Of a stretch of DNA of 8,206 nt, positions 33 to 5,626 are shown piece by piece. The notes under the pieces are model-generated. The model was not told where the DNA came from. It saw only the letters and a program-made list of their open reading frames with translations, and did not search any database. The position numbers and the translations under genes are program-made. The stretch's first letter is position 1, and each line of letters starts with the position of its first letter. Source of the DNA: a virus (lineage: Duplodnaviria; Heunggongvirae; Uroviricota; Caudoviricetes); the IMG/VR virus record IMGVR_UViG_2671180490_000005. One strand, given 5' to 3'.

Positions 33-3000
33 ATGGGTAAAGGCAGCAGTAAGGGGCATACCCCGCGCGAAGCAAAGGACAACCTGAAGTCCACGCAGTT
101 GCTGAGTGTGATCGATGCCATCAGCGAAGGGCCGGTTGAAGGTCCGGTGGATGGATTAAAAAGCGTGCTGCTGAACAGTACACCGGTGCTGGACAGTGAG
201 GGGAATACTAACATCTCCGGTGTCACGGTGGTGTTCCGGGCAGGTGAGCAGGAACAGACACCGCCGGAGGGATTTGAATCATCAGGTTCCGAGACGGTAC
301 TGGGTACGGAAGTGAAATACGACACGCCGATCACCCGGACCATCACGTCGGCAAACATTGACCGTCTGCGCTTTACCTTCGGTGTGCAGGCACTGGTGGA
401 AACCACCTCAAAGGGGGACAGGAATCCGTCGGAAGTTCGCCTGCTGGTTCAGATACAACGTAACGGTGGCTGGGGGACGGAAAAAGACATCACCATTAAG
501 GGCAAAACCACCTCGCAGTATCTGGCCTCGGTAGTGGTGGATAATCTGCCGCCGCGCCCGTTCAACATCCGGATGCGCAGGATGACGCCGGACAGCACCA
601 CAGACCAGCTGCAGAACAAAACGCTCTGGTCGTCATACACCGAAATCATCGATGTGAAACAGTGCTACCCGAACACGGCACTGGTCGGCGTACAGGTGGA
701 TTCGGAGCAGTTCGGCAGCCAGCAGGTGAGCCGTAATTATCATCTTCGCGGGCGTATTCTGCAGGTGCCGTCGAACTATAACCCGCAGACGCGGCAATAC
801 AGCGGTATCTGGGACGGAACGTTTAAGCCAGCATACAGCAACAACATGGCCTGGTGTCTGTGGGATATGCTGACCCACCCGCGCTACGGCATGGGTAAAC
901 GTCTTGGTGCGGCAGATGTGGATAAATGGGCGCTGTATGTCATCGGCCAGTGTTGCGACCAGTCGGTGCCGGACGGTTTTGGCGGCACTGAGCCGCGCAT
1001 CACCTGTAATGCGTACCTGACCACACAGCGTAAGGCGTGGGATGTTCTCAGTGATTTCTGCTCGGCGATGCGCTGTATGCCGGTATGGAACGGGCAGACG
1101 CTGACGTTCGTGCAGGACCGACCATCAGATAAGGTGTGGACCTATAACCGCAGTAATGTGGTGATGCCGGATGATGGTGCGCCGTTCCGCTACAGCTTCA
1201 GCGCCCTGAAGGACCGCCATAATGCCGTTGAGGTGAACTGGATTGACCCGAACAACGGCTGGGAGACGGCGACAGAGCTTGTTGAAGATACGCAGGCCAT
1301 TGCCCGTTACGGTCGTAATGTCACGAAGATGGATGCCTTTGGCTGTACCAGCCGGGGGCAGGCACACCGCGCCGGGCTGTGGCTGATTAAAACGGAACTG
1401 CTGGAGACGCAGACCGTGGATTTCAGCGTGGGTGCTGAAGGGCTTCGNCATGTACCGGGCGATGTCATTGAAATCTGCGATGATGACTATGCCGGTATCA
1501 GCACCGGTGGTCGCGTGCTGGCGGTAAACAGCCAGACCCGGACGTTGACGCTCGACCGTGAAATCACGCTGCCATCCTCCGGTACCACGCTGATAAGCCT
1601 GGTTGACGGGCAGGGGAATCCGGTCAGCGTGGAGGTCCAGTCCGTCACCGACGGCGTGAAGGTAAAAGTGAGCCGTGTTCCTGACGGTGTTGCTGAATAC
1701 AGCGTGTGGGGGCTGAAGCTGCCGACGCTGCACCAGCGATTGTTCCGCTGCGTGAGTATCCGTGAGAACGACGACGGCACGTATGCCATCACCGCCGTGC
1801 AGCATGTGCCGGAAAAAGAAGCCATCGTGGATAACGGGGCGCACTTTGACGGCGACCAGAGCGGCACGGTGAATGGTGTCACGCCGCCAGCGGTGCAGCA
1901 CCTGACTGCCGAAGTCACCGCAGACAGCGGGGAATATCAGGTGCTGGCGCGCTGGGACACGCCGAAGGTGGTGAAGGGCGTGAGCTTCCTGCTCCGTCTG
2001 ACCGTAACAGCGGATGACGGCAGTGAGCGGCTGGTCAGCACGGCCCGGACGACGGAAACCACNGTCACGAAGATGGATGCCTTTGGCTGTACCAGCCGGG
2101 GGCAGGCACACCGCGCCGGGCTGTGGCTGATTAAAACGGAACTGCTGGAGACGCAGACCGTGGATTTCAGCGTGGGTGCTGAAGGGCTTCGCCATGTACC
2201 GGGCGATGTCATTGAAATCTGCGATGATGACTATGCCGGTATCAGCACCGGTGGTCGCGTGCTGGCGGTAAACAGCCAGACCCGGACGTTGACGCTCGAC
2301 CGTGAAATCACGCTGCCATCCTCCGGTACCACGCTGATAAGCCTGGTTGACGGAAGTGGTAATCCGGTCAGCGTGGAGGTTCAGTCCGTCACCGACGGAC
2401 TTAAGGTGAAAGTGAACCGGGTTCCTGACGGCGTTGCAGAATACAGCGTGTGGGGGCTGAAGTTGCCGACGTTGCGTCAGCGCCTGTTCCGCTGTGTGAG
2501 TATCCGTGAGAACGATGACGGCACGTATGCCATCACTGCCGTGCAGCATGTACCGGAAAAAGAAGCCATCGTGGATAACGGGGCGCGCTTTGACGGCGAC
2601 CAGAGCGGCACGGTGAATGGTGTCACGCCGCCAGCGGTGCAGCACCTGACCGCCGAAGTCACCGCAGACAGTGGGGAATATCAGGTGCTGGCGCGCTGGG
2701 ACACGCCGAAGGTGGTGAAGGGCGTGAGCTTCCTGCTCCGTCTGACCGTAACAGCGGATGACGGCAGTGAGCGGCTGGTCAGCACGGCCCGGACGACGGA
2801 AACCACATACCGCTTCACGCAACTGGCGCTGGGGAACTACAGGCTGACAGTCCGGGCGGTAAATGCGTGGGGGCAGCAGGGCGATCCGGCGTCGGTATCG
2901 TTCCGGATTGCCGCACCGGCAGCACCGTCGAGGATTGAGCTGACGCCGGGCTATTTTCAGATAACCGCCACGCCGCATCTTGCCGTTTATGACCCGACGG

Positions 3001-5626
3001 TACAGTTTGAGTTCTGGTTCTCGGAAAAGCGGATTACCGATATCAGGCAGGTTGAAACCACAGCCCGCTATCTTGGTACGGCGCTGTACTGGATAGCCGC
3101 CAGTATCAATATCAAACCGGGCCATGATTATTACTTTTATATCCGCAGTGTGAACACCGTTGGCAAATCGGCATTCGTGGAAGCCGTCGGTCGGGCGAGC
3201 GATGATGCGGAAGGTTACCTGGATTTTTTCAAAGGCAAGATAACCGAATCTCATCTCGGCAAGGAGCTGCTGGAAAAAGTCGATCTGACGGAGGATAACG
3301 CCAGCAGACTGGATGAGTTTTCGAAAGAGTGGAAGGACGCTAACGATAAATGGAATGCCATGTGGGGCGTCAAAATTGAGCAGACCAAAGACGGCAAACA
3401 TTATGTCGCGGGTATTGGCCTCAGCATGGAGGACACGGAGGAAGGCAAGCTGAGCCAGTTTCTGGTTGCCNCGGCGACAGAGCTTGTGGAGGATACGCAG
3501 GCCATTGCCCGTTACGGTCGTAATGTCACGAAGATGGATGCCTTTGGCTGTACCAGCCGGGGGCAGGCACACCGAGCCGGGCTGTGGCTGATTAAAACGG
3601 AACTGCTGGAAACGCAGACCGTGGACTTCAGCGTGGGCGCAGAAGGGCTTCGCCATGTACCGGGTGATGTCATTGAAATCTGCGATGATGATTATGCCGG
3701 TATCAGCACCGGTGGTCGCGTACTGGCGGTGAACAGCCAGACCCGGACGCTGACGCTCGACCGTGAAATCACGCTGCCATCCTCCGGTACCACGCTGATA
3801 AGCCTGGTTGACGGAAGTGGCAATCCGGTCAGCGTGGAGGTCCAGTCCGTCACCGACGGCGTGAAGGTGAAAGTGAGCCGGGTTCCTGACGGCGTTGCAG
3901 AATACAGCGTGTGGGGGCTGAAGCTGCCGACGCTGCACCAGCGATTGTTCCGCTGCGTGAGTATCCGTGAGAACGACGACGGCACGTATGCCATCACCGC
4001 CGTGCAGCATGTGCCGGAAAAAGAGGCCATCGTGGATAACGGGGCACACTTTGACGGTGACCGGCGCGGCACGGTGAATGGTGTCACGCCGCCAGCGGTG
4101 CAGCACCTGACCGCCGAAGTCACCGCAGACAGTGGGGAATATCAGGTGCTGGCGCGCTGGGACACGCCGAAGGTGGTGAAGGGTGTGAGCTTCCTGCTCC
4201 GTCTGACCGTAACAGCGGATGACGGCAGTGAGCGGCTGGTCAGCACGGCCCGGACGACGGAAACCACATACCGCTTCACGCAACTGGCGCTGGGGAACTA
4301 CAGGCTGACAGTCCGGGCGGTAAATGCGTGGGGGCAGCAGGGCGATCCGGCGTCGGTATCGTTCCGGATTGCCGCACCGGCAGCACCGTCGAGGATTGAG
4401 CTGACGCCGGGCTATTTTCAGATAACCGCCACGCCGCATCTTGCCGTTTATGACCCGACGGTACAGTTTGAGTTCTGGTTCTCGGAAAAGCGGATTACCG
4501 ATATCAGGCAGGTTGAAACCACAGCCCGCTATCTTGGTACGGCGCTGTACTGGATAGCCGCCAGTATCAATATCAAACCGGGCCATGATTATTACTTTTA
4601 TATCCGCAGTGTGAACACCGTTGGCAAATCGGCATTCGTGGAAGCCGTCGGTCGGGCGAGCGATGATGCGGAAGGTTACCTGGATTTTTTCAAAGGCAAG
4701 ATAACCGAATCTCATCTCGGCAAGGAGCTGCTGGAAAAAGTCGATCTGACGGAGGATAACGCCAGCAGACTGGATGAGTTTTCGAAAGAGTGGAAGGACG
4801 CTAACGATAAATGGAATGCCATGTGGGGCGTCAAAATTGAGCAGACCAAAGACGGCAAACATTATGTCGCGGGTATTGGCCTCAGCATGGAGGACACGGA
4901 GGAAGGCAAGCTGAGCCAGTTTCTGGTTGCCGCTAACCGTATCGCGTTTATTGACCCGGCAAACGGGAATGAAACGCCGATGTTTGTGGCGCAGGGCAAC
5001 CAGATATTCATGAACGACGTGTTCCTGAAGCGCCTGACGGCCCCCACCATTACCAGCGGTGGCAGTCCTCCGGTATTTTCCCTGACATCAGACGGAAAGC
5101 TGACCGCTAAAAATGCGGATATCAGTGGCAGTGTGAATGCGAACTCAGGAACGCTCAACAATGTCACGATTAACCAGAACTGTACGATTAAGGGCATGCT
5201 GGAGGCGACCCAGGTCAGAGGGGATTTCGTTAAAGCTGTATCAAAAGCCTTCCCGAAAAAAGTCGGTACGTGGGGTAACACGGAAACACCAAACGGTACG
5301 GTTACAGTCACCATCAGCGATGATCATAACTTTGACCGCCAGATTATTATTCCGCCCATTATTTTTAACGGTATAGCGTATGACGATCCGGGGAGCGGAA
5401 ATAACCCAGGAGGCACGCGATACACGGGTTATGGTTTTGAAGTTCGCAAAAACGGCGTATTAATCGCATCCAGAGAAACTAAAGGGGCCATTCCCGGTAG
5501 TTACAGTGCAGTTATTGATATGCCTAGTGGTGGTGGTAGCGTCACTCTGGAGTTTAAGATTTTCCAGAAAGGCAATCAGGGGGCAGGCAATATCACCGAC
5601 TGTACGGTGATTGTGACCAAAAAAGC
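33..5626 (+). CDS. J: Lambda-like host-specificity / tail-tip protein J (allele A). As written it is expanded by internal duplications and its 3' end is cut by the N-run at 5627; the native protein would be about 1130 aa.
   Basis: ATG at 33 with GGAG at 21-24 upstream. The N-terminus [34 protein letters not shown]... and most of the length match lambda gpJ as I recall it, including the fibronectin-III-like segment [38 protein letters not shown]. The frame is open throughout except for n-containing codons. The last readable residues ...CTVIVTKK(A) parallel the end of the second allele (...[14 protein letters not shown]). Confidence 0.9.
1320..2807 (+). repeat. Direct tandem duplication inside J: two 744-bp units (1320-2063 and 2064-2807), joined at the ambiguous base 2063.
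   Basis: The peptide [42 protein letters not shown]...STARTTET occurs twice in tandem in the J frame. The unit length of 744 nt is a multiple of 3, so the frame is preserved. The copies differ at scattered sites, for example gacgggcaggggaat versus gacggaagtggtaat, and H versus R in LHQRLF / LRQRLF. Confidence 0.9.
3472..4931 (+). repeat. Third copy, about 1.46 kb, of the J segment equivalent to 1267-2062 plus 2808-3470 (without the nested 744-bp repeat), joined at the ambiguous base 3471.
   Basis: After n3471 the sequence cggcgacagagcttgtggagg... restarts at the equivalent of 1267 ([25 protein letters not shown]...) and runs colinear through ...[12 protein letters not shown] at about 4931. 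The offset is about 2205 nt, a multiple of 3. It carries its own substitutions, such as caccgagccggg versus caccgcgccggg, ggaagtggcaat, and DRRG versus DQSG. Confidence 0.9.

Follow-up and report, generated by a model that had tools for sequence, protein, structure and literature searches.

The window analysed here is the whole 8,206-nucleotide (nt) stretch of IMG/VR virus record IMGVR_UViG_2671180490_000005, which is assigned to the Caudoviricetes. It carries sequence of J, the gene for the tail tip attachment and host specificity protein known from bacteriophage lambda (gpJ), followed by lom and by the 5′ part of stf, the gene for the side tail fibre (Table 1). An open reading frame (ORF) of 1,919 amino acids (aa) runs from 33 to 5792 and appears to contain a tandem repeat, which is the subject of this report. 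A repeat finder returned three copies (1320-2062, 2064-3470 and 3525-4931), whose starts are 744 and 1,461 nt apart, together with a weaker further copy from 5634. The identity between repeats is 96-98% over 0.7-1.4 kb, far above chance. Tandem Repeats Finder reported nothing; the periods of 744 and 1461 lie above its 500-nt limit, so this result is no evidence against the repeats.

The window contains 10 undetermined bases (N), three of them single (1448, 2063 and 3471) and seven in a run (5627-5633). All three copy boundaries coincide exactly with Ns (2063, 3471 and 5627-5633), and the boundary Ns delimit four segments, A to D. The long ORF reads through the Ns as X residues. Copy 3 in fact begins at 3472, which adds 53 nt of J at its upstream end. 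An earlier reading made from the letters alone (the sequence-only reading) had noted neither the Ns at the boundaries nor these 53 nt, and it had also passed over the fourth J copy and the arrangement of the variants in blocks.

Table 1. Features of the window. Positions are those of the window; J coordinates are those of the closed-genome J gene of MLI023K1.
Feature	Position	Strand	Description
Segment A (contig 1)	1..2062	+	J nt −31 to 2030 (32 nt upstream of J, then J nt 1-2030); start codon at 33; contains copy 1 (1320-2062)
Ambiguous base in segment A	1448	.	Not a junction; J coordinates continue 1415 to 1417
Junction 1 (A/B)	2063	.	Single N; J coordinate falls back from 2030 to 1288
Segment B (contig 2)	2064..3470	+	Internal J fragment, J nt 1288-2694; copy 2
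Junction 2 (B/C)	3471	.	Single N; J coordinate falls back from 2694 to 1235
Segment C (contig 3)	3472..5626	+	J nt 1235-3389, stops 25 nt before the J stop codon; contains copy 3 (3525-4931)
Junction 3 (C/D)	5627..5633	.	Seven Ns; J coordinate falls back from 3389 to 2004; reading frame lost
Segment D (5634-8206), first part	5634..7110	+	3′ part of a fourth, more divergent J, J nt ~2004 to stop; different C-terminal receptor-binding domain
lom (Ail/Lom outer-membrane beta-barrel protein gene)	7178..7777	+	Pfam Ail_Lom, E = 4e-129, full length; usual downstream neighbour of J
stf 5′ end (side tail fibre), cut by insertion sequence	7836..8168	+	Pfam phage_tail_N, positions 1-104 of 134
IS21-family insertion sequence terminus	8154..8206	+	Multi-copy repeat at contig end; left boundary approximate, between 8144 and 8154

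We mapped the window piece by piece onto the closed-genome J gene of MLI023K1 (3,414 nt). Taken alone, each segment is a single contiguous match to an ordinary J gene in complete E. coli genomes. The best identities are 98.4% for A, 99.4% for B (RM14721, G1/2 and others), 98.5% for C and 98.7% for D, whose best closed-genome match lies within the 3,480-nt J gene of FDAARGOS_943. Beyond the end of J, segment D continues through lom and stf. In closed genomes J is 3,414-3,480 nt long and is followed by lom (600 nt) and stf; the order J-lom-stf in the window is the same. The whole window collapses onto 4.2-4.6 kb of this normal locus.

The Pfam domains of the segments follow the order of lambda gpJ, that is FNIII-A_GpJ, Phage-tail_3, Ig_J, Ig_J_second, Phage_Tail_Tip and Ig_GpJ_C. 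The junctions split these domains. Segment A carries FNIII-A_GpJ, Phage-tail_3 and an Ig_J that ends at profile position 66 of 104 (1-66). Segment B begins inside Phage-tail_3 (position 98 of 164) and stops inside Phage_Tail_Tip (54 of 139). Segment C resumes within Phage-tail_3 (from profile position 84) and proceeds through Ig_J, Ig_J_second and Phage_Tail_Tip to Ig_GpJ_C, while segment D starts within Ig_J (from profile position 60) and continues through Ig_J_second and Phage_Tail_Tip to a full Ig_GpJ_C. Each segment by itself thus belongs to the gpJ family, with the expected consecutive subset of domains and all scores above gathering. The 1,919-aa ORF as written does not: incomplete domains recur in it in the wrong order, and it is 1.7 times as long as a normal J, for which about 1,130-1,160 aa are expected. 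This stacked layout was found in no true J gene of the collections searched. At the third junction the frame is broken, 25 nt short of the normal J stop codon. Junctions 1 and 2 are in frame only in that the offsets of 744 and 1,461 happen to divide by three.

The J sequence in segment D shares 88.3% identity with B and C across 496 nt and 73-85% beyond these; it overlaps A by only 25 nt, with two mismatches. The two C-terminal J regions of the window (4972-5626 and 6450-7110) share only about 73-85% DNA identity, and both match Pfam Ig_GpJ_C. The source therefore has J genes with differing receptor-binding domains.

The junctions were searched for in 5,426 complete E. coli genomes and 50,697 phage records. 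Junction 1 (a 121-nt query in the genomes) is contiguous in none of the genomes and in none of the phage records. For junction 2, no record in either collection covers at least 80% of the spanning query. Junction 3 is contiguous in none of the 5,426 genomes. A longer, 181-nt query for junction 1 was apparently covered in 4,222 records; in these hits the tool had joined two stretches of a single normal J that are separated by 743 bp. Exact junction patterns gave no hit in the genome and viral contig collections, which is a weak test, as exact flanks are required.

The stacking recurs in other drafts. In at least eight other draft-genome IMG/VR contigs (L004, L010, L014, L027, L034, L040, L047 and L049), all among contigs fetched for other reasons, the J coordinate falls back at single Ns, at J coordinates unlike those of the window, and each contig holds two to four stacked J fragments. 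L027 stacks J 1491-2187, 1491-2694, 1519-3350 and 1942-3142, and L040 stacks J 1306-2369, 1241-3077, 1905-3170 and 3250-3961. L014 has three partial J copies with single Ns between them, two of the copies being followed by lom and stf. Judging from their IMG/VR UViG identifiers, we take all eight to come from isolate genome projects. Single-N stacking of J appears to be a systematic product of an assembly or scaffolding pipeline and not biology.

We read the window as a short-read scaffold of four contigs chained through placeholder Ns, drawn from several J alleles, and not as contiguous DNA; from the sequence we put the probability of this at about 95%. Because the contigs overlap in J coordinates, chaining them yields a false tandem repeat and a false 1,919-aa ORF. 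Read pairs anchored in stretches common to several J alleles would have linked contigs that are specific to one allele. The scaffolder would then have estimated zero or negative gaps, failed to merge the non-identical ends and written a single N. A single N for a non-positive gap is a convention of some scaffolders. The seven Ns at junction 3 would reflect a small positive gap estimate. Segment ends match internal stretches of other segments exactly: A over its last 83 nt (to B and C), and B over its first 290 nt (to A) and its last 747 nt (to C). Contigs that terminate at the branch points of a repeat graph are expected to look like this.

On every point that can be tested, the tandem repeat behaves as an artefact, and on none as a genuine duplication. 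Ns stand at the breaks of colinearity, the junctions are absent from finished genomes in which the pieces are ordinary, and the layout recurs in drafts. No junction is contiguous and fully determined, since all of them consist of Ns, and no junction recurs in the complete genomes searched, nor either single-N junction in the phage records. The tandem feature is thus no real genomic structure, and the biology behind it, multiple J alleles, is already known.

The alleles themselves are real. The sequence-only reading had described the three copies as distinct alleles, not fresh duplicates, that differ at multiple sites including synonymous ones, and all four differences that it quoted are present in the window. 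The first is gacgggcaggggaat (1606-1620), gacggaagtggtaat (2350-2364) and gacggaagtggcaat (3811-3825), and the second is ctgaagctgccgacgctgcaccagcgattg (1714-1743) versus ctgaagttgccgacgttgcgtcagcgcctg (2458-2487). The other two are caccgcgcc (1365-1373) versus caccgagcc (3570-3578) and DQSG (1854-1865) versus DRRG (4059-4070). Over the 743-nt three-way overlap (1320-2062, 2064-2806 and 3525-4267) there are 44 variable columns, including the N at 1448. Copy 1 differs from copy 2 and from copy 3 at 27 positions each, and copies 2 and 3 differ from one another at 33. Among the variable codons, 32 are synonymous only and 7 change the amino acid. Copies 2 and 3 can be compared over 1407 positions; all 33 differences fall within the initial 660 nt, with full identity over the remaining 747 nt.

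The variants are clustered in haplotype blocks, with 12 runs against 28.4 expected, and none of 100,000 shuffles reached 12. This block pattern shows the copies to be recombinational mosaics of one another, which is common among J genes. In segment A, positions 1-1600 are near-identical to the J gene of NT1F31, and 1610-2062 are 100% identical to a different haplotype that is present in several independent contigs (L049-L052).

We compared the copies with a panel of 46 distinct J sequences, taken from IMG/VR contigs and from closed genomes. Every variant base of the window is also present in these independent J genes at 42 of the 44 sites. Site 292 is an exception only through an alignment gap; the exact copy-1 string is present in 29 other contigs, which brings the polymorphic sites to 43 of 44. 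The copy-3 string that encodes DRRG (a 48-mer, like the copy-1 string) occurs in 25 viral contigs as well as two species-representative genomes, those of Shigella flexneri SFBU1023 and E. coli ECMA0423. Independent natural J alleles match every copy with 0-2 mismatches per 200-nt window. The ambiguous base at 1448 is C in copies 2 and 3, and the panel has 33 C and 9 T at this site. Because the N falls on a C/T polymorphic site, it suggests collapsed reads from more than one allele.

The closed genome of E. coli E2865 served as a positive control for the divergence of J within one genome. Its two prophage J genes, at 0.65 Mb and 2.13 Mb, differ at 34 of the 743 sites and at 138 of 3,414 overall. 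They show the same block-wise divergence of 3.6-4.6% over J nt 1288-2030 as the copies in the window. Unlike the latter, the E2865 alleles are not in tandem; they lie in separate prophages about 1.5 Mb apart. With standing polymorphisms, mostly synonymous changes and divergence on the scale of E2865, the description of the copies as distinct alleles holds, and the variants are not the result of drift after a duplication. The alleles are old, functional, under purifying selection and recombinationally mosaic.

Three haplotypes are present over J nt 1288-2030, and each is matched by natural alleles. Since three distinct sequences cover one interval, at least three J loci or genomes must have contributed. 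Segment D cannot continue B or C, given 12% divergence from both in the overlap. The number of contributing loci is at least three, and probably three or four. Similarity suggests that the 5′ part of A and B share one allele, which is NT1F31-like, and that the 3′ parts of B and C share another, which is RM14721/MLI023K1-like. The 5′ part of C or the 3′ part of A may continue into D as an L009-like allele. The 5′ part of C together with D is colinear with L009 at 99.43%, and the 3′ part of A together with D fits at 99.37%. The combination of A 5′, B and C 3′ reaches only 98.4% to any panel gene. Natural mosaicism leaves the phase indeterminate when it is judged by similarity, and path-switching inside contigs, with A and C as assembly chimeras, would look the same in these data.

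Such alleles normally reside in different lambdoid prophages of a single E. coli or Shigella genome. Complete E. coli genomes have 2-3 J-like places in the median and at most 14-16, so one genome suffices. It could also be that the same real alleles were wrongly scaffolded from a mixed sample, that is, from two or more strains or a metagenome bin. This is a variant of the scaffold reading that differs from it in origin only. The sequence itself fits either origin, and the ambiguous base at 1448 on a C/T site fits a mixture of either kind. The two prophages of E2865, however, already differ as much as the copies in the window, and the eight other stacked contigs belong, by our reading of the UViG names, to isolate genome projects. 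One polylysogenic genome is thus sufficient and more likely as the source, and we consider a mixed sample unlikely. The sequence-only reading had proposed that reads from at least three lambdoid prophages were interleaved. Its main interpretation, that assembly combined distinct alleles of several lambdoid prophages, is supported. Interleaving read by read does not fit, as whole contigs are joined through Ns, possibly with some path-switching inside the contigs.

Several observations weigh against the scaffold reading. Both single-N junctions are in frame and superficially resemble a real in-frame duplication; the chance that at least two of three junctions are in frame is ~7/27, about a quarter. 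The closed-genome and phage collections that were searched exclude the source strain, so that the absence of the junctions is strong evidence, not absolute. One variant is private: at window position 2587, copy 2 has CGC in place of CAC (His to Arg), the sole such case among the three copies. Neither the viral nor the metagenome collection contains the corresponding 47-mer, and the variant is unseen in the J panel; it could be a substitution private to the strain or a consensus error. The case as a whole is built on sequence comparison.

The first of these points is what would be seen if the repeats were real. J would then have grown to about 1,900 aa through partial tandem duplications, old and in frame, or through a gene-conversion mosaic, and the Ns would be isolated low-quality bases. 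The ORF does pass the first two junctions in frame, and the copies are diverged, as they would be in an old duplication. Against this, three independent N sites are exactly the three copy boundaries, and the junctions cut four Pfam domains midway. The third junction breaks the frame just before the normal J stop codon. The haplotype of each copy also occurs elsewhere, in J genes that are ordinary and single-copy. None of the junctions is contiguous in the 5,426 complete genomes, the two single-N junctions are found in none of the 50,697 phage records, and the same layout appears at single Ns and other J coordinates in eight unrelated draft contigs. We regard real repeats as very improbable. 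The sequence-only reading had kept an old duplication or gene-conversion mosaic as its fallback; the tandem structure in that proposal is not supported, and the notion of alleles that are recombinational mosaics of one another survives in the block pattern.

That the window holds a single J allele, and that the differences between copies are sequencing or consensus errors, is hardly credible. The N inside copy 1 and the variant at 2587 would fit errors, but 43 of the 44 variable sites are standing polymorphisms in independent J genes. The variants are moreover mostly synonymous (32 against 7) and lie in long haplotype blocks, and each copy agrees exactly with natural alleles over whole 200-nt windows. 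We likewise give next to no weight to the idea that the stacked copies are physically real, with silent truncated cassettes that donate to the adjoining expressed J by gene conversion and so vary the tail tip and host range, the Ns being base-calling failures caused by the repeats.

The scaffold reading places the window among known cases. Mis-scaffolded lambdoid prophage genes in short-read drafts of E. coli and Shigella have the same near-identical prophage copies, breaks at repeat boundaries (here also at the end of an IS21-family element) and joins made of Ns. Nothing essential is different in the window; the outcome here is a false 1,919-aa J ORF, with two joins in frame. The homogeneous lambdoid prophage content is known to fragment short-read assemblies of enterohaemorrhagic E. 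coli (PMC7175801).

An antisense ORF of 1,245 aa (1125-4862, minus strand) spans the repeated J region, has the same X residues at the Ns and is self-repeating. It is most likely a spurious stop-free frame opposite J that was lengthened by the false repeat.

That polylysogenic E. coli carry multiple mosaic J alleles is well known, and the window has little biological weight. Its practical value is in quality control: neither the 1,919-aa J protein nor the 1,245-aa antisense ORF belongs in protein catalogues. N-joined J stacks recur in draft-derived viral contigs and give rise to false long or duplicated tail-protein ORFs. Where such data show signals of repeats or of a 'giant tail protein', the first check should be whether Ns stand at the boundaries of the repeat.

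Downstream of lom, the homology to uninterrupted stf stops at window position 8153, about 320 nt past the stf start, and a stop codon follows at 8166-8168. The sequence runs on in L014, where it matches istA regions of the IS21 family from 2,415 complete genomes. This IS21-family point is also where the drafts L009, L015 and L023 break, and the insertion site in stf is therefore common to several strains. The closed genomes NZ_CP060083.1 (G1/2) and NZ_CP060057.1 (G8) have an IS21-like ISEc12 between J and lom and two annotations of lom, a further case of IS21-family elements targeting this tail-gene region. In the closed-genome prophage of FDAARGOS_943 that is closest to segment D (NZ_CP065615.1, locus L058), a frameshifted pseudogene of an ipaH-type type III secretion system effector E3 ligase lies at 8374-10019 of the locus, just downstream of the tail fibre genes.

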